64,000 nt of DNA from Clostridia bacterium (GCA_030524345.1 JAUNGP010000006.1:15105-79104), one strand, 5' to 3'; positions 2,272 through 64,000 are shown, counted from the stretch's first letter. Made by a program: numbers and translations. Notes: a model not told the origin generated them from the sequence alone.

Positions 2272-2350
2272 AAAATGAGGGCGCTAAGGTGTAAAAGTAA
2301 CATCTTGGTGTCTTTTTGTTTTTATGATAAGCATATTCAGATATACATAT

Positions 2351-2526
2351 TTGACATAATATGAAAAAAAGTGATATAATATAAATATGAATATATAAAT
2401 TAAGTCTCTACAAATTTTAGGGAACTGGTATCCCTTTATATTGTGTAGAACTTTATTTATTTACCATTTTAGGTAGCAAAAAAATAGAAAGGACTCCCAA
2501 GTTATAAAGGGAAAAATGGTGTTATT
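2351..2526 (+). promoter_or_regulatory. promoter plus structured 5' leader, family copy 0
   Basis: TTGACA (2351) and TGnTATAAT (2375-2380). A hairpin at about 2405-2451 (TCTACAA..AGGGA-actggta-TCCCT..TTGTGTAGA) is followed by a U-rich tract. An SD-containing hairpin lies just 5' of the ATG. About 80% identical to the copies at 16.0 and 17.5 kb. Confidence 0.6.
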
Positions 2527-2751
2527 ATGAAAAAGTATGATTTCTTTGGTATGAAACAATTTCTGGTAGGAGGTAAAGCTCATCTTGACGGTGAGACAAT
2601 CATTTCACGGTATCTTATAGGAAACCATAAGATCCTCGTTGAGGACAATGACGACAGTTTTCGAGTTACCGTCGATCGTACTACCCGAGTAGTGGATTCA
2701 GAAGAAAAAGTGGAGGGAATCCTCTTAGGAATCTACCTGGTTACCTATTAA
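2527..2751 (+). CDS. small hypothetical protein (74 aa), GC-elevated, leader-controlled
   Basis: ORF directly after the conserved leader. ATG is preceded by the 4-codon uORF ATGGTGTTATTATGA. A 16-bp perfect terminator follows. Confidence 0.5.
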   Translation: MKKYDFFGMKQFLVGGKAHLDGETIISRYLIGNHKILVEDNDDSFRVTVDRTTRVVDSEEKVEGILLGIYLVTY

Positions 2752-2756
2752 AATGA

Positions 2757-2810
2757 ACACCTTTAAATGTTAGAGAAAATTTTATTTAACATTTAAAGGT
2801 GTATTTTTTG
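2757..2810 (+). terminator. rho-independent terminator
   Basis: 16-bp perfect stem (acacctttaaatgtta / taacatttaaaggtgt) followed by TTTTTTG. Confidence 0.8.
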
Positions 2811-2937
2811 CCTATTTATATATAATATATATTATTTGTGAATTACATATAATTGCTTGCTAAAAGAAATTTTCTCTAAGTATCGATAATTGGTATTAAT
2901 TGGAAAAAAAGACAAATAATAAATTTAGGGTGATGAT

Positions 2938-3897
2938 ATGAAAATTGGAATTCCAAAAGCATTATATTATTATGAATATCCAATCCTTTTTAAAAGTTTT
3001 TTTGAAGCACTTGGAATAGAAGTTGTACTAAGCGATGATACAAATAAAAAAACTTTAGAGGAGGGAATTAGTAAATCAATTGATGAAGAATGCTTAGCAA
3101 GTAAAATATTTTTAGGTCATGTCAATAATTTGGTTAGCAGAATGCAAAGTGAAAGTATAGATTATATTTTTGTACCAAGACTTTGTACTTTTAAGGATAA
3201 GAAAACAATATGTGTGAAATTCTATGCTTTATATGATATTTGTAATAACATATTTAACGCAAATTTTATTACTTTAAATATCGATTATGAAAAGGGAGAA
3301 AATGAGTTAAAATCTTTTATGTGTTTAGGTAAAAAGTTAGGAAAAGGAGTAAGAGAGACTTTCATAGCATACACTTCTGCGAAAAAAAGACAAAAAGAAT
3401 ATGAAATTTTTAGATTAACTAAACAGATGAAAGAGATGAGAACTACAAATAATATGAAAATACTATTGGTATCTCATCCATATATATATAATGATCGTTA
3501 TCTTGGAGATACAATTAAGGGGTATTTAAAAAAGCTTGGTATTGATGTATTCTTTGCAGATATTAATTGTTCTAGTATTCAAAGAAGTGAATCAAAAAAG
3601 ATGAGATATAAAAATATATCAAAAAGTATATATTGGAAACAAAGCATTCATTTACTAAATGGAGTAGAAGAGTATTTAAGATGTGTAGATGGGATCATAT
3701 ATTTATCTGTATTTCCATGTGGCACTGATTCTCTTGTGAATGAGCTGGCTATCAGAAAGGTAAAAGATATACCAAGTCTTAATATTATACTGGATGAAGA
3801 AGATGGAATGGCAGGAATATATACAAGGCTTGAGAGTTTTATTGATATATTAGAAAGCAAAATAGAAAGAAGTGAGATTGAATATGCAAAAAGATAA
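2938..3897 (+). CDS. 2-hydroxyacyl-CoA dehydratase family protein (activase-associated domain)
   Basis: First gene of a three-gene operon with overlapping stop/start codons. Its neighbours are an HgdB/D-component-like gene and a BadF/BcrA-type activase. Family call from composition and context; moderate confidence. Confidence 0.5.
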   Translation: MKIGIPKALYYYEYPILFKSFFEALGIEVVLSDDTNKKTLEEGISKSIDEECLASKIFLGHVNNLVSRMQSESIDYIFVPRLCTFKDKKTICVKFYALYDICNNIFNANFITLNIDYEKGENELKSFMCLGKKLGKGVRETFIAYTSAKKRQKEYEIFRLTKQMKEMRTTNNMKILLVSHPYIYNDRYLGDTIKGYLKKLGIDVFFADINCSSIQRSESKKMRYKNISKSIYWKQSIHLLNGVEEYLRCVDGIIYLSVFPCGTDSLVNELAIRKVKDIPSLNIILDEEDGMAGIYTRLESFIDILESKIERSEIEYAKR

Positions 3898-5002
3898 AAA
3901 GTTTGTTGTTAGTTTTCCTCATATTGGAAATTACTATATTCCTATCTATAATTTATTAAAAAAATTAATTGATGAAGAAACAACAAGGATTTTAATCCCA
4001 GAGAAAATGAGTAAAAATACAATAGATGTAGGGAGCAAATCGAGTCCCGAGTTTATATGTATTCCTTTTAAATATAATATGGGAAATTATATTGAGTCCT
4101 TAAATAGAGGCGCAAATGTATTGATACAAGCCGGTGGAGGATGTAGATATGGATATTATGCTGAAATACAAGAGCAAATCCTAAGGGATATGGGGTATAA
4201 ATTTACCTATATTACATTACTCGATCCAGAGGGGATTAATATTTTAAATGTATATCATAAGTTTCATTCAATTAATCCTAAATTAAAATTGAAGGATTTT
4301 GTTAGCTATTTTTTATTTACCATTAAAGTAATTCACATTTTAGATGAATTTGAGACGTATATTAGAGAAAATATGGTGTTTGAAAAAGAGAAAGGAAATT
4401 TAGAAAAAATACATCAATCTTTTTTAGAGGAATTAAAAAATGTTAACTCATATAAGGAGTTATATTTTATCAAAAATAAATATTTTAAGCTTGCCAAAAG
4501 TGTTCGAAAAGAGGATAACCAGGAAAATTACATTAAAATAGGAATTGTTGGAGAGCTATATACCTCTATGGAGCCATTTTCTAGTCTTTTTTTAGAAAAA
4601 GAACTGGCTACCATGGGGTGCCTTACGAAAAGATATACTACAGTAACATATTTATTATTTGAAAAAGGAAAAGCACAAAATAAATTGTTAAATAAGGCGA
4701 GTAAATATGTAAATTATGCACTTGGTGCTGACGGACTTGAAAGTATTGCGCATACATTAGAACTGATCAATGATGGCTATGATGGAATTATCCATATTAA
4801 GCCATTTGGATGCACCCCTGAAATTAATGCAATGCCAATTTTACAAAAGATCAGCCAAGATGAAAACATACCAATTATTTATTTTACTTTTGATTCGCAA
4901 ACTAGTGAAGTAGGTATAAAAACAAGACTGGAAGCATTTTATGATATGCTAGTTATGAGAAAAGAAAATTTAAATCGTAATGGGAGGGAGATATATGGAT
5001 AA
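3884..5002 (+). CDS. 2-hydroxyglutaryl-CoA dehydratase D-component-like protein
   Basis: Overlaps the upstream gene by about 14 nt and the downstream activase by 8 nt. Resembles the HgdB-like subunit family (uncertain). Confidence 0.5.
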   Translation: MQKDKKFVVSFPHIGNYYIPIYNLLKKLIDEETTRILIPEKMSKNTIDVGSKSSPEFICIPFKYNMGNYIESLNRGANVLIQAGGGCRYGYYAEIQEQILRDMGYKFTYITLLDPEGINILNVYHKFHSINPKLKLKDFVSYFLFTIKVIHILDEFETYIRENMVFEKEKGNLEKIHQSFLEELKNVNSYKELYFIKNKYFKLAKSVRKEDNQENYIKIGIVGELYTSMEPFSSLFLEKELATMGCLTKRYTTVTYLLFEKGKAQNKLLNKASKYVNYALGADGLESIAHTLELINDGYDGIIHIKPFGCTPEINAMPILQKISQDENIPIIYFTFDSQTSEVGIKTRLEAFYDMLVMRKENLNRNGREIYG

Positions 5003-9798: not shown

Positions 9799-10287
9799 TT
9801 AATGATGATACGTTTCATGATTGATCATTTTAAATGCTCTAAATAGTTGTTCTAGTAGAAAGACTCTAATTAATTGATGTGGAAATGTCATGCTTGAAAA
9901 GCATATTTTATTTTCACTTGTATTCAGTAATTCATCGGTCATTCCTAAACTTCCACCAATTACAAATACTAAAGTAGAGGTACCATAAGTGGTTAGGTCT
10001 TCTATTTTTTTGGAAAAAGCATCCGAAGAATATTCTTTTCCTTTTAAATCTAGGAAAAATATAGTACTTTTTCCTATCTTAATTAGTTTTTCTTTTAGTT
10101 TATTACTTTCTATCTGTTTTATTTTTTGAATTTCCGCGTCATTTAAATTTTGTGGTAATTTTTCATCTTCTAGTTCTATTATTTCCATTTTAGCATATTT
10201 TGATAGCCTCTTTAGATATTCATTACAAAGTTCTTTTAAAGCTTTTTCTTTTATTTTTCCAACACATACTATTTTAATACTTAACAT
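9799..10287 (-). CDS. rlmH: 23S rRNA (pseudouridine1915-N3)-methyltransferase RlmH
   Basis: SPOUT family, about 160 aa. N-terminus MLSIKIVCVGKIKEK. Confidence 0.85.
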   Translation of the reverse strand: MLSIKIVCVGKIKEKALKELCNEYLKRLSKYAKMEIIELEDEKLPQNLNDAEIQKIKQIESNKLKEKLIKIGKSTIFFLDLKGKEYSSDAFSKKIEDLTTYGTSTLVFVIGGSLGMTDELLNTSENKICFSSMTFPHQLIRVFLLEQLFRAFKMINHETYHH

Positions 10288-11081
10288 ATATTATATTCCT
10301 CACTTGATAATGTTTTGCTTGCAAAGTTAATATTAAGATGATCAGTATCAACATCATTTTGTTTTAGAGTAGTAATGATAGTATTAAAAGCAATATCCTC
10401 ATTATTATTATTTTCGCTTAAATGGGCAAGTAAAAAGTTTGCTTGTCCAAGTTTTGCAAGCCTTGCAATAGTAGTAGCACTAACATCATTAGATAAATGA
10501 CCAATGGGGCTTTTAATACGTCTTTTTAAATGAAAAGGATATTTACCAAAATCAAGCATAGCAGTATCATAGTTTGCCTCTAAAATGATATAATCAGAGA
10601 ATTTTAAATGATCAAACACATCACCTGTCATGTGCCCTAGGTCAGTAGCATATGAAAGAGTAGTATTTCCAGATTTAATTCTAAAGCCACAAGGCATTAC
10701 AGCATCGTGTGGTGTCTCAAAAGGCAATATTTCGATACCATTAATTTGAAAAGGTTTATCATATTCTGTTTTAATGATATTAGCTGATATATTTTTTTCT
10801 TTTAAAAGTTCACTCAAAAGATCAGCTGTTTTACCACAAGCATATATAGGAATGTTAGTATTCTTTCTACATAATAAAGGAAGTCCTTTTATATGATCAG
10901 AATGCTCATGAGTAATTAAAACAGCTGAAATGTTTGAAATATCCTTATCAAGACTTTTTAGTCCATCATTAATTGCTTTATAAGTTACACCAGCATCAAT
11001 TAATATATTGGTTCTACCGCCATTATCGATATGGAACAAATTACCAGAACTAGAACTATATAATGGATGTATATTTAACAT
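10281..11081 (-). CDS. MBL-fold metallo-hydrolase (YycJ/WalJ-like)
   Basis: HEHSDH metallo-beta-lactamase motif. Start at the internal Met with GAGGAG SD. Confidence 0.8.
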   Translation of the reverse strand: MLNIHPLYSSSSGNLFHIDNGGRTNILIDAGVTYKAINDGLKSLDKDISNISAVLITHEHSDHIKGLPLLCRKNTNIPIYACGKTADLLSELLKEKNISANIIKTEYDKPFQINGIEILPFETPHDAVMPCGFRIKSGNTTLSYATDLGHMTGDVFDHLKFSDYIILEANYDTAMLDFGKYPFHLKRRIKSPIGHLSNDVSATTIARLAKLGQANFLLAHLSENNNNEDIAFNTIITTLKQNDVDTDHLNINFASKTLSSEEYNIC

Positions 11082-11082
11082 T

Positions 11083-12354
11083 TTAATTCTCCTCATTCTT
11101 TACATATTCGATATTTGCACCAAGATTTGCAAATTTTGCTGTAATATCTTCGTATCCTCTAAGTATATGATGAATATCATATACTTCAGTATTGCCTTCT
11201 GCAACAAGTCCTGCAATGATCATCGCAGCACCAGCCCTTAAATCATGAGAATGAACAGGAGCACTATATAGTTTATCAACTCCTTTTACGATTGCAGTAG
11301 TTCCATGAGCAGAAATATCAGCTCCCATCTTGGCAAGTTCATCGGTGTATTGAAATCTAGATTCCCAAATATTTTCAACAATCATGCCTGTGCCACTTGC
11401 TACAGTCAGTAGAATACATATTTGCGGTTGCATATCTGTAGGAAAGCCTGGATAAGGACTAGTTTTAACAGTAAAAGAGTTTGGCTTTTTATCCATAGAA
11501 ACTCTGATACTATCTTCATATTCTTTTACAGTAGCTCCAGCTTCCAAAAGCTTAGCAGTAATTGGCTCCATATGTTTTGGAATACAATTTTTAATAAGAA
11601 CATCACCACGAGTAACAGCAGCTGCAACCATAAAAGTGCCAGTTTCGATTTGATCTGGTATAATAGAATAACTAGATACTTGATGTAATTCTTTGACACC
11701 TGTAATCTTAATAGTATCTGTACCGGCTCCTTTAATTTGGGCTCCCATAGAATTTAAAAAGTTTGCCAAATCAACGATGTGAGGTTCCTTTGCTACATTT
11801 TCTATAACAGTAGTTCCTTCTGCTAAAGTAGCGGCAAGAATTGCATTCATTGTAGCTCCAACACTTACTACATCTAAAAATACAGGAGCACCTTTGAGTG
11901 AAGTAGTTCTACTAGCATACACATTACCATTTCTTACTTCAACAGTGGCTCCAAGTCTTTCAAAAGCCTTAATATGTTGATCGATTGGTCTAGCGCCAAG
12001 ATTACAACCACCAGGTAAACTAATTTGAACCTTATCAAATCTTCCAAGTAATGAGCCAAGCAAATAATAAGAAGCTCTAAATTTACTTGTAAGTTCCGAA
12101 GAAGCAATTGCAGAATTAACATTTGAATTGTCAATAATTAGTTCATTTTTAGAAATATATTCAATATTAGAGCCTAGCGACTCTAGTATTTTTACATATG
12201 CTCTGATATCACTTATATCCGGTACATTTTCCAAATGACATTTTCCTTTTACTAACAAAGTAGCAGGTAAAATAGCAACAGCAGCATTCTTAGCGCCACT
12301 TATAGTTACTTCGCCATTTAGTCTACATGGACCATGTACAATAAATTTTTCCAT
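11083..12354 (-). CDS. murA: UDP-N-acetylglucosamine 1-carboxyvinyltransferase
   Basis: MEKFIVHGPCRLNGEVTISGAKNAAV N-terminus and the full-length EPSP-synthase-like fold. SD GGGGGA 7 nt upstream. Confidence 0.9.
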   Translation of the reverse strand: MEKFIVHGPCRLNGEVTISGAKNAAVAILPATLLVKGKCHLENVPDISDIRAYVKILESLGSNIEYISKNELIIDNSNVNSAIASSELTSKFRASYYLLGSLLGRFDKVQISLPGGCNLGARPIDQHIKAFERLGATVEVRNGNVYASRTTSLKGAPVFLDVVSVGATMNAILAATLAEGTTVIENVAKEPHIVDLANFLNSMGAQIKGAGTDTIKITGVKELHQVSSYSIIPDQIETGTFMVAAAVTRGDVLIKNCIPKHMEPITAKLLEAGATVKEYEDSIRVSMDKKPNSFTVKTSPYPGFPTDMQPQICILLTVASGTGMIVENIWESRFQYTDELAKMGADISAHGTTAIVKGVDKLYSAPVHSHDLRAGAAMIIAGLVAEGNTEVYDIHHILRGYEDITAKFANLGANIEYVKNEEN

Positions 12355-38461: not shown

Positions 38462-40516
38462 TTACTTACTATCTACCATATAATCTTCAATGACTTTATA
38501 AGTCCAAGCCGACGAACCAGTATACCAAGTCCAACCTCCTCTGCCTACATGATCTGGATTAGAATAAATATCTGCCGCTACAACATAAGGCTCTACCATA
38601 TATTTATCTGCCATATCCTTAGAATCAGAATGATAGATAGGATTAATATATTTTAGGATTTGTATTCCTTCTTCTTTCATTCCAAATTCAAAATATGCCT
38701 TAGCAAGCCATGTTGCAGCATGAGTATATTGGCCTCCATTTTCTCTTGTACCAGGTACATAGGCCTTGATATATCCGGGATTATTCTTTGGCTTATCAAA
38801 AGCCGGATAAAGCAATTTTACAATCATATTTTCTTTATCTACCAAATATTTATCAGCTGTTTTTAAACATTCGACTAGTTCATTTCTTACATCTGGATAA
38901 TCTTTCATTGCAATCACAGCCCAAGCTTGGGAAATCAAGTCTATCTTACATTCCCTATTAGAGTTTGCTCCTAGCACTTCCCCATTTTCAAAAAAGGCTC
39001 TAACAAAATGATCTTCATCCCAAGCATTATCAATAATACTATGTTTAAAAATATGTCTTTGCTTTTCACATAATTTTTCCATTGTATCATCTTTTTTAAT
39101 CTGAGATAACTTAGTAAATCTTTTTAAAATATCCATCATAAAAAATGTAAGCCACACGGATTCTCCTCTTATACTGCTAAATCCATCATTCCAATCGCCA
39201 TCTCCTATTTCAAGTAAACCATTTTTTTCATTAATTCTTGATAGGCTATACTGAATAGCTAGTTTTGCGTGCTCATATACAGTAGCCTCTTTATCTATTT
39301 GATGATATATATCATATACCTCTCTTTTATCTCCCATCGGTTTATCTTCTAAAAAATGTGTTTTAACATCTAATATAGAAATATCTCCTGTTTTTTCTAC
39401 ATATTCAGAAAGTACATATGGAAGCCATAGATAATCATCACTAAAATAGGTTCTAATCCCTGCATTATTATGAACATGCCACCAATGAAGAACATCACCT
39501 TTTTCAAATTGTTTACTAGAATTTAATATGATCTGTTCCCTCGTTTTTTCAGGCCAAGAGCTAATCAATGCTAAAGTATCTTGAAGTTGATCTCTAAATC
39601 CTATGGCTCCACCAGATTGATAAAAAGCAGATCTTGCAAAAAGTCTACACACGATGGTCTGATATAGTAACCAACCATTTGCCATAATTTCTAAATACTG
39701 ATTATCCAGCTTAAAGTTTCTTACTACACGCTCCCTCCAATACGCAATTGTATCTTGATATTCCTTTTCTATTGCCTCCTTGGTATCATATTTTTTTAAT
39801 ACTTCGGCAATATACTCTTTATCATTGCTACAGCCGAATATAATAGAGTATTTTTCTTCTTTTCCCTCTGCAAGTTTTGTTGTAATTCTTACCATGTAAT
39901 CGTCTGGCATATACTCTACAATTGAATTCTCATTTGCTCCTTTTACAGTAACAAAAGATATGCAGTCAGAAAACTCTAAACTATATGGATTTTTAAACTG
40001 CATTACACCATCTTTTTCTCTACACAAAATATATTGTAAATTAGTCTCCTGGGCAACACCAAGAACTGGTTCTAATCGATACTCTATTACACATTCTTGA
40101 GCTTTAGAATATTTATTTTCAAGTGTAATCGTTTGTATTTTTACAGTATCCTCTTTAGGAATAAAGATATCCATTTTTTTAGATATATAATGATCTTCTT
40201 GTAATACTTTAGAATATCCAAATCCATATACTAAATTATAATTATTATCATATATTCCATGAAATATCTCTCCAGGCTTAAAGCTAATCCAATCATTACA
40301 CCAATTCGTAAGTTTAAATCCTTGACTATTTTTATAATAGGTGTATACAGTACCATAGCTTGAAACTACGGTACCGAAATTTTCATTTGCCATGACATTA
40401 CACCAAGGAAGTGGAGTTTTAACATTTAATATATGATATTCATCTCCTTGCTTATTAAATCCACCATATGAATTAAAAGCTATATATTCATTTGAGTTAG
40501 AATTAAACTCCATCAA
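38462..40516 (-). CDS. GH94-family glycoside hydrolase/phosphorylase module (C-terminal module of a split cyclic beta-1,2-glucan synthase)
   Basis: N-terminal beta-sandwich motif (TPLPWCNVMANENFG). GDWNDG catalytic-acid motif. C-terminal GGWTWYTGSSAW, typical of GH94. Overlaps the upstream gene by 14 nt. Confidence 0.75.
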   Translation of the reverse strand: MMEFNSNSNEYIAFNSYGGFNKQGDEYHILNVKTPLPWCNVMANENFGTVVSSYGTVYTYYKNSQGFKLTNWCNDWISFKPGEIFHGIYDNNYNLVYGFGYSKVLQEDHYISKKMDIFIPKEDTVKIQTITLENKYSKAQECVIEYRLEPVLGVAQETNLQYILCREKDGVMQFKNPYSLEFSDCISFVTVKGANENSIVEYMPDDYMVRITTKLAEGKEEKYSIIFGCSNDKEYIAEVLKKYDTKEAIEKEYQDTIAYWRERVVRNFKLDNQYLEIMANGWLLYQTIVCRLFARSAFYQSGGAIGFRDQLQDTLALISSWPEKTREQIILNSSKQFEKGDVLHWWHVHNNAGIRTYFSDDYLWLPYVLSEYVEKTGDISILDVKTHFLEDKPMGDKREVYDIYHQIDKEATVYEHAKLAIQYSLSRINEKNGLLEIGDGDWNDGFSSIRGESVWLTFFMMDILKRFTKLSQIKKDDTMEKLCEKQRHIFKHSIIDNAWDEDHFVRAFFENGEVLGANSNRECKIDLISQAWAVIAMKDYPDVRNELVECLKTADKYLVDKENMIVKLLYPAFDKPKNNPGYIKAYVPGTRENGGQYTHAATWLAKAYFEFGMKEEGIQILKYINPIYHSDSKDMADKYMVEPYVVAADIYSNPDHVGRGGWTWYTGSSAWTYKVIEDYMVDSK

Positions 40517-43500
40517 TCATATCACCCTCCATATTATCTTTTGTATTTTCATTTAAAAGCTCTGTTGCTTTTTCAGTAGCAGATTCTTCGTTTTTCTCAA
40601 AACATAAGAATTCAGATATGTTTTGTATATATCTTCTAGAAAGATATGTAAGTAATGTTATTTCTTGTTTTGTCAAATTACTGATATTTAAGATATATAT
40701 ATCACCCTTACTTTGTTCCATATATACCGCTCTATCAATTCTTGTCTTAATATACCTATATATTGGACCATCTTGCTTTTGTGGTTCATCTATTAATACT
40801 ATGATATCTAAGTCAATTTTCCTATTTTTTACATAGTCCATAAAGTTAATCACTTCATTGATGATTCCTGCATCTTCTATTTTATTAATATGTACAAGAA
40901 TAATCGGTAAATCTCCAGATATTGAATATTTCCAAAGTGCTGATTGATTTAAATTTTCATCCCAGAATTTTTCATCCTCTGTAATACTCTTTTTAATCAA
41001 AACATCTTTTAAAATGTTATTATATACCTCTGCTCTAGTTGGCTCTAATTTTAAATATCTTGCTACAACACTATTTAATTCATTTGTAAGTTTACATTGA
41101 TCTTCTATTCCATCCTTATCTAGGTTTAATATTGCATTTGATATTTTATATCTACTATCTGCAACACCTAAAACATAATAAAATTCTTGTCTTTCATAAG
41201 GCTCTAAGATAATTCTTGCCCTATAGGATAAAACTGGCCATAATGGATACCTTACAATATTTTCATCATATGAAGTCTCATCGTTATTAAATAACTTTTG
41301 CTTTTCTGTTTCCACTTCTTTTTCAAGATCGATTCCAACAAGTTTTGCAAACACATATAATTCTTTATCATCGTCTGATTTCTTTCTTTTGCTTGCAACC
41401 AATACATCTAAATCTTCGTCATAGTAAGTTTCGATCTGTAAATTACTAAATGAAGGATGAACAATTCCTGTCATATAATCAGTCATTGCGGGTTCAACAT
41501 AGGTATTAATGATAATTTCCTTTTTAGTATTTCCATTATTATATACACTAATTTTTTTCATTTCTGCATTAAATTCTGGTGATATAGATATTGTTGTAGC
41601 GGTCTCTAAATCTCCTGCTACAAGTGTACATTCAACATTGTTTAATGAACTCACCCATTTACATTTGTCCGTATTTTTATTAAATTTACTATGTATATTG
41701 CAATCTGTAACAGAAATAGTATTTCCAGTAGTCTTATCAGTAAGATATACAAAATTTCCACTTGTTTCAAGTTCAGTATATCTTTGTCTATTTACAATTT
41801 TATCTTTATACCTTAAAAAGCTTGCTCCATTATTGCTAATCATACTTGATAGATGAGAGCCCTTTAAAAATGCAATATTTAATTTATTACTTGCATCATT
41901 TGGTGTAATATATTTTCTATCTGCATAAGTATAACTAACATATGTAGTATATTTTTGTGTATTTTTCTGTTTAAATTTATTTTCTTTGTCCTTTGCACCC
42001 TTTTTAATATTGGCTTTTATTCTCTCACGCTCTTTTAATAATATTTCACATGCTTTTATATTTGGATTGGAATGAAATCTTGACTTGATAACTCCATGAT
42101 TTATATAATTATTAATTGCAGTCAGTATCATACCCTGATGGTGCGCCATATATGTTTTGGCTATCTCACACTCAGCACCTGCATGTAAGTTTTCCTTTGT
42201 GTAGTCAATAGACTCATAAAATCCATAAGAAGAATATAATCCCAGTTCTTTTAACCTATTCATATTTTTATATACTCTGACTGGATCTATTTCTATCATA
42301 AGGATTGAAGAATATGGAGATATTACAAGTGAGTCATTAAGCCCTCTTTTTAATCCAAGCCAAGGTATTCCAAATGCTTTATACTGATAATTTAATTCAT
42401 CATCTTTTACAGCATATGCAGATTCAGATATTCCCCAAGCAACATTATTTGCTTTTGCATATTTTAATTGACTATATTTTGTAAAGAAGAGTGACTGATC
42501 AATTAAAGTATGCTCATAGGATTTATTAAATAGAAATGGCATAAAATACTCAAATGCTGTACCAGTCCAAGATATTAGTCCTTTATATCCATCCAAGCTC
42601 ACTAGGTTTCTTGCTAAAGCAAACCAGTGCTTTGAAGTCACTTGCTTTGATGCAATTGCAATCAAACTTGTTGTTCTACTCTCTGACATTAACATATCAT
42701 AATAGCTATCTACTAGCGTTCCATTTTCCACTGCATATCCAATCGAAAATAAATTTCTAGAAGTATCATATAATTTGGAAAAGTCCGCTTCCTCTATAAT
42801 ACTTTCAGTAATGTCAAGCATCCCATCAATTCTTTCTTGATACTCGGCAATAAAATCTTTGATACTATACGATTTATCTTTCTTTAAATCATATAAAAAT
42901 TCTCTTGCTACATAAAGACAAGATATAAAATTTCCACTGTCAACCGTAGAAACAAATCTAGGTCGTAATGGTTCTAATGTTTTAATATTATACCAATTAT
43001 ATAAGTGACCATTCCAGGTTTCTAACTTTTCAATAGTGTTATATATATTTTCTAACCTTTTAATCATATCCGCTTTATTAATAAAGCCTAAATCATAAGC
43101 ATCAATAATTGCAAGTATCCCAAATCCAATATTAGTAGAAGATGTTCTATTTGCTATTTTGTGCCTTCTATTTTCTTGAAAATTATCTGTAGGTAAATAA
43201 TTATTCGTTGGACTCATCATCGTATCAAAGAAAGTCCAAGTTCTTTTAGCTACTTCTAATACCTCTTCCTTTTCTTTTTCCTCCAATGGTTTTATTCTAC
43301 CTACTAAATGATCCTTTCCAAGTAAATAACAAAGCATTGGTCCAAGTAAAAATGAAATTGCTACAAATATTTTAAAGTCTATTAATACAACTGCCTCAGT
43401 ATCTAATGCAAATGGAACAAACAAAATGAAAAGTCCTACAATTACATTAATAAACATATTAGAATAATAATATGATAAACTATCTTTTGCTGATTTTTCT

Positions 43501-46133
43501 AGCATTTCTCCTGTTGTCCATTGTAGTAAATTCTTTTTAGAAATCAACATTCTATAAAGTGACATCGTAAATGCACTAATACAATTATATGCCCTATATG
43601 GCATTGTAACAAAATGAAAGCACATTGTAAGAAAATCAGCACTAGCTCCATGAATAATAGGAATATATTGCACATCTTTTGTGTGTCTTACTTTACCATA
43701 TAATATAATATCAATAATTGAGAGTACATATCCAAAATTTAAAGCTACAAAACTTAATAAAGTGGTCACTATGAAAGTCTCTTTTGATACAAATATCGAT
43801 ACAATAATAGCAATTAGGGCAAATACATCTAAAAGGGGTCTTCTTAAATTATCAAATATTTTCCATTTAGATAATATGTTAAGTTTTGATTTTGGACTGA
43901 TCAGCCATCTAATGATTTGCATGTCTCCCCTATACCATCTATGATTTCTTTTCATATATGCTATATAATTATTTGGAAAACCATCTTGAAGTTCAACATC
44001 TGATGCAAGTCCTGCCCTTATAAACGATCCTTCTAGTAAATCATGACTTAATACCAAATTTTCTGGTATTTCTTTTCCAAGTAACTTTTCAAAAAGTTCT
44101 ATATTATAGATTCCTTTTCCACAAAATATAGCTTCTCCAAAAACATCTTGATAAACATTTGCTATCGCATTTGTGTAAATGTCAAGGCCACCTACACCCC
44201 CAAATATTTTGGAAAATATACTTTTATTTGCAGCTTCTATGTCAAGACCTACAGAAGGTGTGATAAGGCCATATCCCTTTTCTACAATTTTTCCATTTTG
44301 AGATAATACTGGCTGGTTTAATGGATGAGCGATAATCGATACTAAATCCTTTGCAGTATTAAGTGATAATTGGCTATCTTCATCCATTGTGATTGCATAT
44401 TTTGCAGGCATAATATCATCATAGATAAGATACATTGCTCTACTTATTTCCTCTTGGCTTAAATTTCCAAGAATCAATTTATTAAACTGTGAAAGAGCCC
44501 CTCTTTTTCTCTCCCATCCCATATAGCAGCCTTCACCTTTAGAATATACACGTTTTCTATATATAAAATTAAATATTTTATGTTCAGATTCATACTTTTC
44601 ATTTAATTCATCTAATCTTTTCTTTGCATATTCAACTATTTTTTTGTCAATACTAATCGTTTCCCTATCACTAGAAATACAATCTCCAAGGAGCATATAA
44701 TACATATTCTCGCTTCTATTAGAAAGATATGTAACTTCCATTTTTTTAATCATGTCATCTAATTTTTCTACAGAAGAGATCACTGTTGGCATAACAACAT
44801 AGGTTGGATATTTCTTATCAACCGTTTTGGCAAAATCAAATCTAGGTAATACTTTAGGATGTATCATTTTTCTAAGTAGATAACTTAGTATTTTATCAGA
44901 AGCCTCCAAAGAAAATACAAAGGCGATGATATAAAAGAATATATTGATCCCTAAATATTCAAAATGAATTAACTCTCTGCCAACAAAATAAGTTATTAAC
45001 GCAGCAATCAATAATAAAAAAGAAATGTAAATATGTGCTTTGATTGGTTGTATACACTTATAATAAAGTCTATCAGTAAAATAAGATTTATTAAGCTCCT
45101 TTTTTAAAAGATATTTTTCTTCACCAATTAGGAAAAAACCAACATGTTTTTTATACTTATGTGAACATTCTACTGCTTTTTTAGCTACATATGCTTCCGA
45201 CAAATTATACTTTTTAGCAAGCCTTATAATATAGCTTCTATATCTTCCTTTTGTTTTATAATCACATTTTTTAAATTCATTTGTATAATCTTTTCTTAAG
45301 GTTTCATCAATTTTATTTACTTTTTCAAATATTTCCCTAAAATTAAGTCCCTGTAATTGCTTATATGCAAGTATTGCTCTTCCTATATAATCTGTCGTTT
45401 TAGCAATTTCCATATGCTCTTTTACAATTGCCTCTTCTACTGTAAATCCAATCTTATCTGCTTCTTCTGTTAATATATTAAAAAAGCTCTCTCCTTTTGG
45501 GCCAAGTTCTTTTAATCTATATGCCATATATTCTACTAATGCTGTATTTGTATGTTTTATTTTAGAATAATCTGTTAATGCTGTTTTATTAAAGCCTTTA
45601 AAAAAATTAAAATCATGATATAATTCTTTTACCAATTTATCAGTAGAAAGATTTTCATTGGAAAGGATTTTTTCAACTTCCATTTTTCTCATCTGAGAAT
45701 TTGATATATTAACACAAATTCTTGCTATAAACTTTAATAATGCCATTTTTAACATTAGAACAAATAAATCTAGCTCTTCCGAAGTAAGGTATGATAACTT
45801 CTGATGTTCCTTTAAACAATTTAATATAATATTTTTATCAATATATCCCGTATTTTTTTCCACTAGCTCATAAGCTAAGAAAAAAATGCTAATGCACTTA
45901 TCACCATTATTTGTTTTTATCACCGGCAATTTTTTGTTTTTTAGTATTCTTCTAGATTCTTTTATTTCATCGTATTCTTGTTCTATGATATACATATTGT
46001 CTAGTATCCATTGCCCAGCAGAATGTATCTGTATTTTCATATCATAAGTTTTCTCTAAAATCTTATGCGTTTTTGCTATTATTTTATAATTTTTTTCTGC
46101 TTCATTAAATGTGGCTTTTAGCGAATTTTTCAT
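40503..46133 (-). CDS. cyclic beta-1,2-glucan synthase-like protein (N-terminal domain plus GT84 glycosyltransferase plus TM region plus central glucan-processing domain)
   Basis: 1876 aa. The GT84-type motif GWERKRGAL and DxD-containing region (ITMDEDSQL). Multiple TM helices after the GT domain. Large alpha-helical central domain. Confidence 0.7.
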   Translation of the reverse strand: MKNSLKATFNEAEKNYKIIAKTHKILEKTYDMKIQIHSAGQWILDNMYIIEQEYDEIKESRRILKNKKLPVIKTNNGDKCISIFFLAYELVEKNTGYIDKNIILNCLKEHQKLSYLTSEELDLFVLMLKMALLKFIARICVNISNSQMRKMEVEKILSNENLSTDKLVKELYHDFNFFKGFNKTALTDYSKIKHTNTALVEYMAYRLKELGPKGESFFNILTEEADKIGFTVEEAIVKEHMEIAKTTDYIGRAILAYKQLQGLNFREIFEKVNKIDETLRKDYTNEFKKCDYKTKGRYRSYIIRLAKKYNLSEAYVAKKAVECSHKYKKHVGFFLIGEEKYLLKKELNKSYFTDRLYYKCIQPIKAHIYISFLLLIAALITYFVGRELIHFEYLGINIFFYIIAFVFSLEASDKILSYLLRKMIHPKVLPRFDFAKTVDKKYPTYVVMPTVISSVEKLDDMIKKMEVTYLSNRSENMYYMLLGDCISSDRETISIDKKIVEYAKKRLDELNEKYESEHKIFNFIYRKRVYSKGEGCYMGWERKRGALSQFNKLILGNLSQEEISRAMYLIYDDIMPAKYAITMDEDSQLSLNTAKDLVSIIAHPLNQPVLSQNGKIVEKGYGLITPSVGLDIEAANKSIFSKIFGGVGGLDIYTNAIANVYQDVFGEAIFCGKGIYNIELFEKLLGKEIPENLVLSHDLLEGSFIRAGLASDVELQDGFPNNYIAYMKRNHRWYRGDMQIIRWLISPKSKLNILSKWKIFDNLRRPLLDVFALIAIIVSIFVSKETFIVTTLLSFVALNFGYVLSIIDIILYGKVRHTKDVQYIPIIHGASADFLTMCFHFVTMPYRAYNCISAFTMSLYRMLISKKNLLQWTTGEMLEKSAKDSLSYYYSNMFINVIVGLFILFVPFALDTEAVVLIDFKIFVAISFLLGPMLCYLLGKDHLVGRIKPLEEKEKEEVLEVAKRTWTFFDTMMSPTNNYLPTDNFQENRRHKIANRTSSTNIGFGILAIIDAYDLGFINKADMIKRLENIYNTIEKLETWNGHLYNWYNIKTLEPLRPRFVSTVDSGNFISCLYVAREFLYDLKKDKSYSIKDFIAEYQERIDGMLDITESIIEEADFSKLYDTSRNLFSIGYAVENGTLVDSYYDMLMSESRTTSLIAIASKQVTSKHWFALARNLVSLDGYKGLISWTGTAFEYFMPFLFNKSYEHTLIDQSLFFTKYSQLKYAKANNVAWGISESAYAVKDDELNYQYKAFGIPWLGLKRGLNDSLVISPYSSILMIEIDPVRVYKNMNRLKELGLYSSYGFYESIDYTKENLHAGAECEIAKTYMAHHQGMILTAINNYINHGVIKSRFHSNPNIKACEILLKERERIKANIKKGAKDKENKFKQKNTQKYTTYVSYTYADRKYITPNDASNKLNIAFLKGSHLSSMISNNGASFLRYKDKIVNRQRYTELETSGNFVYLTDKTTGNTISVTDCNIHSKFNKNTDKCKWVSSLNNVECTLVAGDLETATTISISPEFNAEMKKISVYNNGNTKKEIIINTYVEPAMTDYMTGIVHPSFSNLQIETYYDEDLDVLVASKRKKSDDDKELYVFAKLVGIDLEKEVETEKQKLFNNDETSYDENIVRYPLWPVLSYRARIILEPYERQEFYYVLGVADSRYKISNAILNLDKDGIEDQCKLTNELNSVVARYLKLEPTRAEVYNNILKDVLIKKSITEDEKFWDENLNQSALWKYSISGDLPIILVHINKIEDAGIINEVINFMDYVKNRKIDLDIIVLIDEPQKQDGPIYRYIKTRIDRAVYMEQSKGDIYILNISNLTKQEITLLTYLSRRYIQNISEFLCFEKNEESATEKATELLNENTKDNMEGDMIDGV

Positions 46134-59641: not shown

Positions 59642-59798
59642 AAGACTCACTCCTTTAGTGTCAAATTGATACTTTAGTATATCATAAACCTTGTCTATTG
59701 TAAATTCATTTTTACGATAAATAATGAAAAAACTATCCTTGTACCAATATATGTTAATATTATAGTACAAAAATACAATTTAATTTTACAATAGTACA

Positions 59799-59827
59799 TT
59801 GATTATCACAAAAAACTTATATATAAT
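59799..59827 (+). promoter_or_regulatory. consensus-like sigma-A promoter driving a noncoding transcript convergent with cas9
   Basis: TTGATT, 17 nt, TATAAT. Confidence 0.6.
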
Positions 59828-59833
59828 AAAGAT

Positions 59834-59937
59834 AATACACACCTAACACACACACTCGTTATACTTTCCTATTGTTTTATAATAAATTTGTCACTATCAA
59901 GAAGGATTACTTCCTTCTTGTTTTTATTTTTTTAAAT
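59834..59937 (+). ncRNA. candidate ~100-nt small RNA abutting the cas9 3' end (possible tracrRNA / fixed guide RNA)
   Basis: Defined by the promoter at 59799-59827 and the terminator caagaaggattacttccttcttg plus TTTTTATTTTTTT at 59898-59937. Contains no ATG. The U-tract overlaps the last cas9 codons on the opposite strand. Confidence 0.5.
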
Positions 59938-62900
59938 GAAAATTCATGCGTATCTCGGGTAATTTTACCTCAGTGTAATTGCCTAAAATATCTACCTGAT
60001 ACTTTTTTATAACAGCTAAATTTCGAACTCCAAGACTTGGTTGCCAATATCTTCTATCATGAGTAGACAAAGCAATGGATGAGGAATTAATCCCACATTT
60101 TATATAGTATCCATATATTTCATTAACAAATATTTTTTCTTTTGTATTTCCTTTCTTCATTGAAGTTAAATAAAAGCCTTTTTTGCTTTGAATATAAACT
60201 AAATCTCCCGGATATAATGAAAAAATAAAATGATCATTTTTCATTTCTTTCCACTTAGATTGTGGCTTAGCGGAAACACAAGCCTTACTTGGCAATGCTT
60301 CTCTAATAGTATCTGATACATATATTGGTACAAAATAATATCCTTCATTAGGAATATGGAAAACATCAATTCTTACTGTATCTCCATTTCCTGCAACTCC
60401 CCCTATTTTATCTATTTTAACATTGCTAGAACTTTTTAACTCTAGTTTTACTTTATTTACAATAGGACCCTTTTCTCCATTTGATTTTGGTTTAAAGAAA
60501 GGTTTACTAAAAGCTACTTTGGCATTTCCATTCGCTTCTATTAATTTTTTTCTTAGCGCTTCATATAATAGCCTATCATCTTTTTTATTATAATAATTTT
60601 CTATCTCATTTTCTTTATTTAACTTAAGCTCAGTAAGTTTTTTTCTAACAATGATGTTTCCATTTTTACATAATCCATTAATTGTTTCCTTATGTGCCAT
60701 TCCTCTCACTTTCCTATTTGGCATTTTAGATACAAAAATTGCTTTTGGATTATCATAGACATTGATCATTTCCAGTTCTTTTTTTACTTCACTATCAGTA
60801 TCTTTCATTCTTGCTTTAAGTTCCAAAATAATTTTTTGATACGCCTCACTTAAATCCATTCTTTTATTACATGTGATACTTTGGATCATCTTTTCACTTA
60901 CTATGGCAATAATAACAGCATCAAGAGCATGATGTTTATCATCTTCTCTAGACTTATTTAAATGAAACATTTTCCTAACAGTATAGGTAATTCCCCCTCT
61001 TAAAGCCATAATTCTTTTACTTTCAGAAATATTTTCATTTGGCTCAATATACAAATAATTTCTGATTAGAGAAAGTACAATTCTTGTTATATATTGAGTA
61101 TCTTTTAAGTTTCTTTCTTTCCATAACATTTCCTCCTCCAAAGAAATCGTCTCTTTCAAAAGATTGCTTACCTTTTTGTGCGTTTTAAGACAGGAAAGTA
61201 CTCTTTCTTTGTATTCATCTATGTTTTTACCAGATTTTAAAATATATTCATTTGGCAACATATCTCCCTTACTTCTAATTTCACATACTTTTGCAAGTAC
61301 TTTATTGTGATAACTATTATCAAAAGTTCTATGATAGGGAATCATATAATCAATATCTACTTTTTTGGAAAATAATTCGCTCAAAGGAATCGTATCCCCA
61401 GAATAGATACATGTTCCATTTTGTTCTTTCCAAAGTCTATACTTTAATATTTCTTCATCTGTAACATTTTCCTTACAAAATTTTTCTTTTATTTCCGTGA
61501 CAATACTTTGTTCCCTAAGCGCATTTGCTGCATTTTCTCTACCAATTCTGGTAATGAATTCTCGAGCAAGTTCTATGTTTACAATTTCAGGACTGCCATA
61601 TTTATCAATGATAGCATTAATTACTTTAATAGACTGTGATATTCCTCGCCTTACTACTGGATTTGTGATCTCTGTTAAATCATTTAATGACAACTTCCTC
61701 TTCTTTTCAAAGTTCATATTTCCTCTAAAATCATGATATACCATATTCGTTGCTTTATCATATGTAAGTCCCTCTTTCAAATAAGGGATTATCTTTTTCA
61801 TTGCCTTGATGGAAAGATGACTAAAATTGGAAAATGTTATATTTAATAGCAATGAAACTATCTGATCATTTAATCCAATTTTAGACAAATATTCTATTCT
61901 TTTCTCATCACTTTTATACAAAGTCAGTATGGTTGCTATATAATCTAATGTATTCTCGTCAAAATGATATATATAGTCTTTTTCATAACCATCTAAAACT
62001 TTTCTTAATTTATGAAAAGACTCTAATTCTCTTAACTTGATATCTGTATTTTTTTCATTTTGTTCTATAACATTTTTGGTATCTTCACTTTTTGATAAAG
62101 AAAAAAAGTTATAATGGATCATATTAAATATCTCATCATCCGGAAGATGAATTATTTCCCTGATACGAAAATAGGAAAGCTCTGATGTATGTCTAAATTC
62201 TTCAATAATTTTTACTTTCTCATCTTCACTAAGTTCTCTTGTATCTGACTTTTTATGATTCATGATTCCATTTTTTCCTACATCCAAATTTAATTTTTCA
62301 ATCTTAATTTTATTTAAGTCTTGTAACAATTTAAATATTTCAAATGTATATGTACTTTTAGCAGCCCTTAGCTCATTTTTTTCAAAAGTACAAGTTCCTA
62401 TCATCTTCTCTATGACATTTCCTGTATAATGGCTTGTAAAAGCAGGTCCTTCATCAAAATTTCGCTGTGACAAGAATATATTTATATATTCATTAATGAA
62501 TTCCTCATCTATATTCTCATAATAATTCCTTTGGCTATCTAAAATAAGTTTTATCTCATGCAATATATGTTCTCTTTTAACTACAGAGCCATAATCCCCT
62601 ATTTTATTTCTCACCTTCAGTATTTTATCACCATTTGAATCGAGGACAAATTCATTTTCTACACGATATTTAAATTTATCATCTTTTAAATACATTTCAC
62701 CAACAGTTCTATATCCCTTCTCTATAAGGATTTTATCATTTTCAGCAATTGCCTTTAAAACTTTACCGTTTTTATCATCTAATGTATTATATTTTGCATT
62801 GGATTGATAACCACGCTTTTTAACAAAATGAATCAGTAGTGAAGCAAGTTCTAACTTAGATATTTTATGATCCAATGCTTTTACTCGAATTTCATAAATA

Positions 62901-63187
62901 TTATGACAATGTATTTGATATAATTCGCTCTCACTTACAATATTGCTTCGAATTAAGAGTTGTTTTACTCTTAAAATTCTATGAGTTCTTCTTCTCAATC
63001 TTCTTCTATTACTTCGCTTTTTACTTCTTTCTTCTGCAAGAGAAGCCCCACTTTTAGGAACTTCTGCAGCTTCAAATATTCTCACACCAAGATCTAAAAT
63101 TTTGACTGGCTCTCCCATATCATCATCTTTTACTACTGCCCAGCCAACTGATGTAATTCCTATGTCTAGCCCTATTCTATATCCCAT
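59924..63187 (-). CDS. cas9: type II CRISPR-associated endonuclease Cas9-like protein with degenerate HNH active site (orphan; no cas1/cas2/array)
   Basis: RuvC-I IGLDIGITSVGWAV. Arg-rich bridge helix RRRLRRRTHRILR. RuvC-II EIVNIELARE. HNH block DIDYMIPYHRTFDNSYHNKVL...EIRSKG has Tyr at the catalytic His position and Ile at the metal-binding Asn position. RuvC-III KHHALDAVIIA. Start at MGYRIG with GGAGGG SD. Confidence 0.85.
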   Translation of the reverse strand: MGYRIGLDIGITSVGWAVVKDDDMGEPVKILDLGVRIFEAAEVPKSGASLAEERSKKRSNRRRLRRRTHRILRVKQLLIRSNIVSESELYQIHCHNIYEIRVKALDHKISKLELASLLIHFVKKRGYQSNAKYNTLDDKNGKVLKAIAENDKILIEKGYRTVGEMYLKDDKFKYRVENEFVLDSNGDKILKVRNKIGDYGSVVKREHILHEIKLILDSQRNYYENIDEEFINEYINIFLSQRNFDEGPAFTSHYTGNVIEKMIGTCTFEKNELRAAKSTYTFEIFKLLQDLNKIKIEKLNLDVGKNGIMNHKKSDTRELSEDEKVKIIEEFRHTSELSYFRIREIIHLPDDEIFNMIHYNFFSLSKSEDTKNVIEQNEKNTDIKLRELESFHKLRKVLDGYEKDYIYHFDENTLDYIATILTLYKSDEKRIEYLSKIGLNDQIVSLLLNITFSNFSHLSIKAMKKIIPYLKEGLTYDKATNMVYHDFRGNMNFEKKRKLSLNDLTEITNPVVRRGISQSIKVINAIIDKYGSPEIVNIELAREFITRIGRENAANALREQSIVTEIKEKFCKENVTDEEILKYRLWKEQNGTCIYSGDTIPLSELFSKKVDIDYMIPYHRTFDNSYHNKVLAKVCEIRSKGDMLPNEYILKSGKNIDEYKERVLSCLKTHKKVSNLLKETISLEEEMLWKERNLKDTQYITRIVLSLIRNYLYIEPNENISESKRIMALRGGITYTVRKMFHLNKSREDDKHHALDAVIIAIVSEKMIQSITCNKRMDLSEAYQKIILELKARMKDTDSEVKKELEMINVYDNPKAIFVSKMPNRKVRGMAHKETINGLCKNGNIIVRKKLTELKLNKENEIENYYNKKDDRLLYEALRKKLIEANGNAKVAFSKPFFKPKSNGEKGPIVNKVKLELKSSSNVKIDKIGGVAGNGDTVRIDVFHIPNEGYYFVPIYVSDTIREALPSKACVSAKPQSKWKEMKNDHFIFSLYPGDLVYIQSKKGFYLTSMKKGNTKEKIFVNEIYGYYIKCGINSSSIALSTHDRRYWQPSLGVRNLAVIKKYQVDILGNYTEVKLPEIRMNFHLKK

Positions 63188-63238: not shown

Positions 63239-63958
63239 TTATTTTTCATAAATTAATATTGTATAAGAACTATTACCACGATACTTTTTTGTCATAGGAG
63301 TAAAATCATCTTCTCCATCAAAAGTAAATACAGTAAGTTCTATAGGAGATACTATATTTCTAGTATTTTTATCTCCAACTAATTTAATTGAACTACAAAT
63401 TCTCTCATCATTCATGATATCTTGTGTTATATGATAATATGATCTTCCAGGTATTAAATGAATATCATCATATAAATAGCATTGTACTTTAGGAAACAAT
63501 AAATATGCATCATCAGGATTTAAGACTATTTGATTGATTGTTTCTCCGCTATCTAAAGTAAACTTTATGTTATACCCTATTTTATAATTGTTATAATTTA
63601 CATACTCATGATAATACTGATCAAAAATTGTTTTAAAATCATCTCTAACAATTTCTTCCTCTAGTGTAGGTATTGCATAAAAAATCCCCATAATATTTTC
63701 TGCAGAAAAGTCACAATAGTATTCTTTTACTAGCCTTTTTCTATTTCCTTCGTCAATATATAATCCTATTTTCATTTCATTCTCATCTACATATTCTTCA
63801 GTTTTTTGAGATTTTACTTCATTTTCAAGCGTTTTCGATGCTTCACTAACATGAGAAGATATGTTTGTTACAACTTTAGTATTTGATAGTACTATTTTTG
63901 CAACGACTACACAGAGTAGTATCATACAAATTAGAATAACGAATATTTTCTTTTTCAA
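63239..63958 (-). CDS. hypothetical membrane-anchored/secreted protein
   Basis: N-terminal signal/TM segment (KIFVILICMILLCVVVA). A weak terminator hairpin (gtgtatc/gatacac) lies between it and cas9. Confidence 0.5.
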   Translation of the reverse strand: MKKKIFVILICMILLCVVVAKIVLSNTKVVTNISSHVSEASKTLENEVKSQKTEEYVDENEMKIGLYIDEGNRKRLVKEYYCDFSAENIMGIFYAIPTLEEEIVRDDFKTIFDQYYHEYVNYNNYKIGYNIKFTLDSGETINQIVLNPDDAYLLFPKVQCYLYDDIHLIPGRSYYHITQDIMNDERICSSIKLVGDKNTRNIVSPIELTVFTFDGEDDFTPMTKKYRGNSSYTILIYEK

Positions 63959-64000
63959 AATGCCACCTCATAAATTATATTCCTATTTTAGCATTAAAAA

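Follow-up and report, generated by a model that had tools for sequence, protein, structure and literature searches.

CRISPR effectors that are used without adaptive immunity have been documented for types I, IV, and V. In type II, regulatory reuse of a catalytically active Cas9 has been documented with the scaRNA and with tracr-L, and about 6% of type II loci are reported to contain mini-arrays and other repeat-derived regulatory RNAs. In the scaRNA systems, Cas9 is used for binding and not for cleavage; the scaRNA acts with a tracrRNA and a catalytically active Cas9, belongs to a complete CRISPR-Cas locus, and avoids cleavage by partial complementarity. The tracr-L of S. pyogenes is a long-form tracrRNA whose fold-back gives a hard-wired guide. 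In type II-C systems, each repeat carries a promoter for the next crRNA, as described for N. meningitidis and C. jejuni (PMC5965381), and the scaRNA of N. meningitidis, a regulatory RNA associated with a type II-C locus, has been reported to act on the efeO mRNA post-transcriptionally and largely free of Cas9 (PMC13431127). An array-less type II-C Cas9 has been described from phages (Altae-Tran et al. 2023), in which RuvC is dead and HNH is active, a tracrRNA is kept but no crRNA is present, and for which an anti-CRISPR decoy role was proposed.

The DNA analysed here is a stretch of 64,000 nucleotides from a Clostridia bacterium (GCA_030524345.1, JAUNGP010000006.1:15105-79104), referred to below as the window, with positions counted from its first letter. 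A predicted noncoding RNA converges with the 3′ end of a cas9 gene for which no array is found, and a reading made from the sequence alone had named this RNA a candidate tracrRNA or a hard-wired guide. Our best explanation is that it is a solitary, self-promoted crRNA, the last remnant of an array, which has been kept with an HNH-dead Cas9 as a hard-wired RNA-guided module; we consider this somewhat better than an even bet (a probability of roughly 0.55). The features of the locus are as follows.

59782–59790, plus strand: invariant 9-mer AATTTTACA, within a wider semi-conserved stretch AATTTTACAAT(A/G)TAC
59799–59827, plus strand: predicted promoter, with −35 TTGATT (59799–59804), a 17-nt spacer, and −10 TATAAT (59822–59827)
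59828–59857, plus strand: spacer equivalent AAAGATAATACACACCTAACACACACACTC, exactly 30 nt (the arrays of the family have 36-nt repeats and 30-nt spacers)
59846–59857, plus strand: putative seed ACACACACACTC at the 3′ (PAM-proximal) end of the spacer equivalent, 12 nt, identical in all orphan lineages
59858–59883, plus strand: putative repeat-derived crRNA handle GTTATACTTTCCTATTGTTTTATAAT, with the first 14 nt invariant except for one C/T site
59898–59936, plus strand: predicted intrinsic terminator, consisting of a 9-bp stem, a 5-nt loop, and a U-tract (59921–59936)
59924–63187, minus strand: orphan type II-C cas9, 1087 aa (TIGR01865, E = 4e-207)
61262–61357, minus strand: HNH active-site segment DIDY(614)MIPY...CEI(637)RSKGD, with Tyr at the position of the catalytic His and Ile at that of the metal-binding Asn

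Promoter, transcript, and terminator

The elements on which the sequence-only reading was based are all present at 59799–59937, namely the TTGATT-17-TATAAT promoter, a strong hairpin followed by a U-tract, the overlap with cas9, and the lack of a start codon. The promoter agrees with the consensus at 10 of 12 positions. The terminator hairpin (CAAGAAGGA/TCCTTCTTG, 59898–59920 on the plus strand, followed by TTTTTATTTTTTT) has a predicted energy of −12.4 kcal/mol (z = −3.6 relative to shuffled sequences). Because the cas9 reading frame on the minus strand ends at 59924, its TAA stop codon occupies 59924–59926, and the U-tract covers this stop codon and the last Lys codons of the minus strand. 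The predicted transcript is about 95 to 100 nt in length, extending from about 59834 to 59930; it contains no ATG or GTG, and the sole ORF that can be read mechanically starts with TTG and has no ribosome binding site.

Promoter and terminator matches by themselves are weak evidence for such a feature. In 6 kb, 56 promoter-like sites were observed (38 expected) and 2 terminator-like sites (1.3 expected); since consensus matches of this kind are common in DNA of 29% GC, the case rests on the relatives. The strong terminator and the TTGATT −35 hexamer are limited to the window and to its closest relative, locus L089, where the hairpin is kept with another stem (CAGGAGA/TCTCCTG; −15 kcal/mol, z = −4.9). 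The other lineages have a weak AU hairpin or a U-run. That these two elements are not kept in all lineages, and that transcription is a prediction, we count against our best explanation.

The 9-mer AATTTTACA lies 32 to 40 nt 5′ of the −10 box and, in the window, immediately 5′ of the −35 hexamer. It may be an UP-like promoter element or the remains of an upstream repeat's 5′ end. Pairing of the 9-mer with the repeat was considered and rejected, because the energies were no better than those of shuffled controls, and a change in L089 that seemed compensatory does not hold in another lineage (L091). The upstream 36 nt were likewise rejected as a recognisable degenerate repeat, as TATAAT is the only part that matches convincingly; in the L003 group, a hand alignment that allows one gap gives an 11/17 repeat match, which is not significant. 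A CcpA cre site in the conserved block was dismissed by eye because of unsuitable spacing.

Related loci, synteny, and decay

The closest relatives of the window Cas9 are 56 to 66% identical and come from other Clostridia MAGs, one of which (MGBC120553) is from mouse gut; the assembly that contains CAOYAN010000014.1 also has the locus. The orphan Cas9s of six lineages form one clade, sister to canonical loci; the next-closest Cas9s (about 45 to 55% identical) belong to ordinary type II-C loci with the order cas9-cas1-cas2-array. The sequence-only reading had stated that no array was present, and a search of the window with TRF and for direct repeats returned none. Neither cas1, cas2, nor an array was found in the window, in the 10 kb beyond it, or at any orphan locus. 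The order at the orphan loci is a tRNA, a gene of about 240 aa, cas9, an intergenic region of about 300 nt that contains the RNA, and ackA (the gene for acetate kinase, which is also the gene that follows cas9 in the window), with a DUF447-like gene next in most of them. We count the constant order of the 240-aa gene, cas9, the RNA, and ackA in every member in favour of our best explanation.

In a related species (GCA_947625855.1; positions 10001–12039 of locus L094), the site is empty: a 241-aa gene with its terminator hairpin borders on ackA, neither cas9 nor the crRNA unit is present, and the ackA promoter is unchanged. The module is therefore dispensable in that species, which we count against our best explanation. 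A canonical relative (positions 9823–14147 of L007) has a cas9 with intact HNH, a tracrRNA, a 69-aa fragment of cas2, about five repeats, and no cas1, and plausibly represents an intermediate of decay toward the orphan state.

Several other observations were made in the regions flanking cas9. The protein encoded upstream of cas9 in the window (63239–63958, minus strand; 239 aa) has an N-terminal membrane anchor and a weak match to DUF3139; it was rejected as a specific partner of Cas9, because its family is far wider (439 uncharacterised Clostridia proteins) and is found without cas9. Beyond position 64000 of the window, the first 9150 nt of the adjoining DNA (L001) encode a phage-integrase fragment, an EcoRI-like methylase, a GmrSD/HNH protein, and a DUF2326 protein. 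This restriction/integrase island adjoins a 3′ tRNA fragment and, as read by eye, looks like a mobile element integrated at a tRNA. At the position of the island, loci L002 and L004 have a tRNA sequence on the other strand (L002 being cut by the end of the contig). Just 5′ of cas9 in L003 (about 930–1056), and also in L010, L090, and L091, there is a perfect TTGACA-17-TATAAT promoter with the hairpin AAACGCTAAATGTAGCGTTTTTTT directly after it, and a near-identical hairpin terminates the 241-aa gene at the empty site of L094. This hairpin may be a leader attenuator of cas9 or a leftover of insertion.

A spacer and a repeat in the crRNA sense

The core of the RNA, GTTATACTTTCCTATTGTTTTAT (59858–59881), agrees at 22 of 24 bases with the 5′ end of the repeat of the canonical locus L005, GTTATACTTCCCTAATGTTTTATT... 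This repeat is GTTATACTTCCCTAATGTTTTATTTTATGGTATAAT in the crRNA sense, and close variants of it occur in other canonical loci. A position weight matrix was built from 45 distinct repeats of family loci, and the handle is the best match to it in the whole 64-kb window on both strands (14.6 bits). The family repeats start with GTTrTA, and 43 of the 45 end in a TATAAT −10 box. The anti-repeat of the tracrRNA is on the cas9 strand at every family locus that was mapped, and the crRNAs of canonical loci are therefore read from the opposite strand; on the cas9 strand the repeats of canonical arrays read ATTATA...TAyrAC.

The window thus contains a repeat-like core with a TATAAT one spacer length (30 nt) upstream of it, on the strand opposite to cas9, and these properties identify the RNA as what appears to be a solitary, self-promoted unit of one spacer and one repeat, in the crRNA sense and with its own terminator. 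The TATAAT of the window would be the −10 box of a degenerate upstream repeat, equivalent to the one that ends the family repeats. TATAAT and the repeat are separated by 30 nt in both the window and L089; the separation is shorter in L002 (28 nt) and in the L003 group (24 nt). A mature guide of about 23 nt is predicted, starting near 59834. The sequence-only reading had pointed to the 5′ portion of the RNA as a guide segment, and this fits the anatomy found, in which a spacer with an invariant 3′ 12 nt is followed by a repeat-derived handle. When paired with the anti-repeats of the family, the handle gives the family pattern of 8 bp, a 2-nt mismatch, and CCU:AGG.

Apart from the terminator hairpin, the RNA is unstructured in both minimum free energy and consensus folds, and no conserved pairs were found on either strand; the lack of conserved structure in a conserved stretch is what is expected of a guide that acts by base pairing. 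No Rfam family matches the RNA at gathering or E-value thresholds. The notion of a hard-wired guide is thus favoured by anatomy and conservation, but not in the form of a single guide of the tracr-L type, because folding gave no repeat:anti-repeat fold-back.

The other proposal, that the RNA is the tracrRNA of the window Cas9, with a 5′ anti-repeat that pairs with crRNAs made elsewhere and a hairpin that serves as the tracr terminator, agrees with a noncoding RNA that adjoins cas9 and has its own promoter and terminator. Its placement beside cas9 is tracrRNA-like only to that extent, as the tracrRNAs of the canonical relatives examined are located 105 to 220 nt upstream of cas9 and on the cas9 strand, and not convergent with it. 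Because the core reads in the same sense as the family repeat, it is not complementary to it and so is not an anti-repeat. Furthermore, the RNA has no nexus or other tracr-type hairpins, is not matched by the covariance model of the family tracrRNAs described below, and would have no array to serve in the window or in the 10 kb beyond. We regard this proposal as refuted by the sense of the core, and give it next to no credence.

Conservation across the orphan lineages

The intergenic regions of six lineages were aligned (the window, L089, L002, L003/L010, L090, and L091/L092). In the block consisting of ACACACACACTC followed by GTTATAyTTTCCTA, 25 of 26 columns are invariant, whereas the proportion is 43% for the remaining ungapped intergenic columns; outside the block, no invariant run is longer than the 9-nt sequence AATTTTACA. 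The TATAAT −10 box is kept in all orphan lineages. The PAM-distal part of the spacer and the distal part of the repeat vary among lineages, with higher conservation of the guide within subclades (the window and L089 share 22 identical nt). The fixed 14 nt of the repeat correspond to the lower stem, the mismatch, and the CCU:AGG of the repeat:anti-repeat duplexes of the family. Because the dS of cas9 between the six lineages is 0.4 to 1.4, the invariance of the block indicates strong purifying selection on the nucleotide sequence.

This conservation across relatives argues that the RNA is a real feature, and its pattern appears to track the anatomy of a crRNA, in which the seed and the lower-stem handle are fixed. 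It also bears on an alternative raised by the sequence-only reading, that of an antisense regulator of the cas9 3′ end. Any mutation preserves the complementarity of sense and antisense strands, and so an antisense role cannot explain an invariant sequence and fails to account for the conservation.

Cas9 with an altered HNH domain

All six Cas9s of the orphan clade have Tyr in place of the general-base His of HNH, and Ile, Ala, or Tyr in place of the Asn, whereas every aligned canonical relative has DxDH...EN[RK] (one with TENK). In an alignment with the PDB chain 8uzb, which we take to be GeoCas9, Y614 of the window Cas9 falls on the position that is Ala in that dead-mutant chain, and I637 falls on the N of ENREKGN. 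All full-length members retain the RuvC residues Asp, Glu, His, and Asp (in GLDIG, IELA, and HHAxDA). It appears from these residues that HNH of the window Cas9 is inactivated and that the RuvC site is intact.

The cas9 genes are under purifying selection, with dN/dS values of 0.15 to 0.19 at dS of 0.4 to 0.6. By domain, with approximate boundaries, HNH is the most relaxed (omega up to 0.28 to 0.37), and RuvC-I with the bridge helix, and the WED and PI domains, are the tightest. The cas9 that is closest to that of the window (L089, positions 1087–4383; 66% identity) is interrupted by one in-frame TAA, at codon 180; its frame is otherwise full-length, and its crRNA unit and terminator are intact. 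An assembly error could explain this stop codon, as could variation among strains or a recent loss of the gene's activity; since it occurs beside an intact RNA unit, we count it against our best explanation.

These observations, together with those on synteny, could also be read as simple decay: the RNA would be an inert remnant that no longer has a function, the last decaying repeat-spacer of a degenerating CRISPR locus, and its Cas9 neighbour would be turning into a pseudogene. Such a reading draws on the loss of cas1, cas2, the array, and the tracrRNA from the locus, the inactivated HNH, the nonsense codon in L089, the loss of the module from the related species with the empty site, and the intermediate stage of decay seen in L007. 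However, 25 of 26 positions are invariant while the synonymous sites of cas9 are near saturation, the cas9 reading frame is intact in five of six lineages and evolves at the dN/dS given above, and the HNH-dead state is a derived character common to the clade, maintained while the proteins diverged by about 40%. Simple decay is hard to reconcile with this conservation, and we think it quite improbable. A near-unchanged unit beside a Cas9 with one dead site suggests that CRISPR machinery may have been reused for one fixed target.

Search for a tracrRNA

A covariance model was built from 12 tracrRNAs of the family and gave scores of 77 to 85 bits on three held-out canonical loci (L016, L007, and L005). 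In L005 the tracrRNA is located at 9843–9932. With its filters on or off, the same model found no tracrRNA at the RNA, in the 64-kb window, in the 10 kb beyond, or at the orphan loci; its best score in the window with filters off was 20.7 bits, inside a 915-aa ORF. With RNAduplex, true anti-repeats gave −28 to −30 kcal/mol, whereas the best non-self candidates at the orphan loci gave a background level of −20 to −22 kcal/mol and were at non-homologous places. An anti-repeat was also sought by BLAST of the intergenic region against the window, by a GU-aware Smith-Waterman alignment, and by a motif search, all of which yielded background matches within ORFs (at 45262 on the minus strand in a 1876-aa ORF, and at 21047 on the plus strand in the 915-aa ORF).

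The first of these matches is at 45245–45262, inside the ORF at 40503–46133 on the minus strand, where 17 of 18 bases match the repeat core (TTCCTTTTGTTTTATAAT). The complement of this segment, which is followed by ATAAGGCT, is the best non-self anti-repeat candidate (−20 kcal/mol), and was judged to be a chance match because it is coding and has a background energy. A structured tracr-like RNA on the cas9-sense strand was considered and rejected, as no conserved structure was found there. In L002, a terminator before cas9 (about 935–965; ACCACTATTTTTAAATAGTGGTTTTTCT) closely resembles the terminator of the tracrRNA in L011 and L005 (CCACTACTTTTTAAGTAGTGGTTTTCTC), and may be the last remnant of a lost tracrRNA. 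We count the lack of a tracrRNA within the searched DNA against our best explanation.

A function that does not involve Cas9 has to be weighed at this point. The RNA could be a trans-acting sRNA, with a CA-rich single-stranded stretch that pairs with mRNAs, or the DNA could be a conserved site bound by a regulator either of cas9 or of the divergent ackA promoter. This possibility would agree with the unstructured nature of the conserved part, with the intact RNA unit of L089 beside a cas9 that has a stop codon, with the negative searches for a tracrRNA in the window and at orphan loci, and with the report of a type II-C scaRNA whose post-transcriptional action depends little on Cas9 in vivo (PMC13431127). 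The extent of the invariant block is less easily explained in this way, because it consists of exactly the seed and the lower-stem handle that is recognised by Cas9 and the tracrRNA, and the seed of an sRNA alone needs less. In addition, the unit and cas9 are always found together, and are jointly absent from the empty site, which has an unchanged ackA promoter, and no Rfam family matches the RNA. We consider a Cas9-independent element unlikely.

Search for a target

About 150 kb of DNA of the orphan lineages (the orphan loci) contained neither a second copy of the seed with up to two mismatches nor a target of the full spacer. Among the other family loci (about 1.05 Mb), there was one exact copy of the seed, in a locus that had been retrieved using that sequence. 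A comparison of the spacer with phage and plasmid collections gave matches with E ≥ 2 in all cases. In metagenome contigs, the 22-mer identified no target and the conserved block had 0 matches, and in viral contigs the repeat had 0 matches. The sole protospacer match in viral contigs (L093), in a GC-richer and apparently unrelated contig, was judged to be due to chance for an 18-mer. As these searches returned no target, and those described above no tracrRNA partner, the function of the module, as set out below, is one that we infer, and the lack of a target within the searched collections counts against our best explanation.

Discussion

In our best explanation, the RNA would consist of one spacer and the 5′ 24 nt or so of a type II-C repeat, as the sole remainder of a CRISPR array. 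The ancestral array would have been located downstream of cas9-cas1-cas2 and transcribed toward cas9, and a single unit abutting the 3′ end of cas9 would have remained once cas1, cas2, and the other units of the array were deleted. The unit is predicted to be transcribed from the repeat-end TATAAT. The invariant handle (GUUAUAyUUUCCUA) would load the RNA into Cas9, and the 12-nt seed, which does not vary (ACACACACACUC; within subclades, conservation extends to about 22 nt), would guide Cas9 to one fixed nucleic-acid target, which might be a chromosomal promoter or a conserved mobile element. At this target, Cas9 would bind and thereby repress in a CRISPRi-like manner, or its activity would go no further than a nick in the non-target strand; it would not produce a double-strand break.

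The tracrRNA would be either unlinked or dispensable, and in the latter case, Cas9 would use the crRNA differently. We know of no Cas9 that binds double-stranded DNA targets without a tracrRNA. On single-stranded DNA, type II-C Cas9s are said to act without a tracrRNA (as stated in PMC13431127). In favour of our explanation by analogy, scaRNA and tracr-L are precedents for repression by Cas9 through repeat-derived RNAs with short seeds. We are doubtful of the more far-reaching proposal, that of a domesticated HNH-dead Cas9, acting as a nickase or a binder with one hard-wired crRNA, perhaps free of a tracrRNA, and serving a host role other than adaptive immunity, such as nicking at a specific site or the repression of a gene.

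If true, our explanation would provide a natural counterpart of engineered nickases and dCas9 with a fixed guide, and a direct test of whether Cas9 is loaded by a crRNA alone or with the help of an unlinked tracrRNA. It would also define the minimal features of the RNA under selection as a 12-nt seed and a 14-nt handle, and imply that there is some target in these gut Clostridia that apparently needs to be bound or nicked. We found no report in the literature of a chromosomal and syntenic clade of HNH-dead Cas9 that keeps only a solitary conserved crRNA.

The known systems that are most informative for comparison share different parts of this arrangement. Like the repeat-promoted crRNAs of type II-C systems, the unit in the window has a −10 box at the end of a repeat and a predicted short transcript that runs from within the spacer into the next repeat, and like the arrays of N. 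meningitidis and C. jejuni, it is oriented opposite to cas9; the 36-nt repeats and 30-nt spacers of its family are a further likeness to those arrays. Unlike those arrays, it is a single unit with its own terminator, and its upstream repeat appears to have degenerated to little beyond the −10 box; the locus has no cas1, no cas2, and no detectable tracrRNA, and the seed portion of the spacer is fixed across species.

The F. novicida scaRNA and the type II mini-arrays (Shmakov et al. 2023) resemble the RNA of the window in that a standalone repeat-derived RNA with a short conserved seed is found beside cas9. We propose the same logic for the window, but with the difference that cleavage would be avoided genetically, through inactivation of HNH, and that the locus is stripped to cas9 and the RNA. 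As in N. meningitidis, the small RNA is linked to a type II-C locus. The likeness to tracr-L would consist in a hard-wired guide with a seed of the 11-nt class that repurposes Cas9 for repression, as proposed here, whereas the RNA of the window has no anti-repeat, no nexus, and no fold-back. The phage array-less Cas9 (Altae-Tran et al. 2023) is similar in the loss of the array and of one nuclease site and in its apparent repurposing, but the two cases are reversed in most other respects: in the window, HNH is the site that appears dead, a crRNA appears to have been kept while no tracrRNA was seen, and the locus is chromosomal and syntenic.
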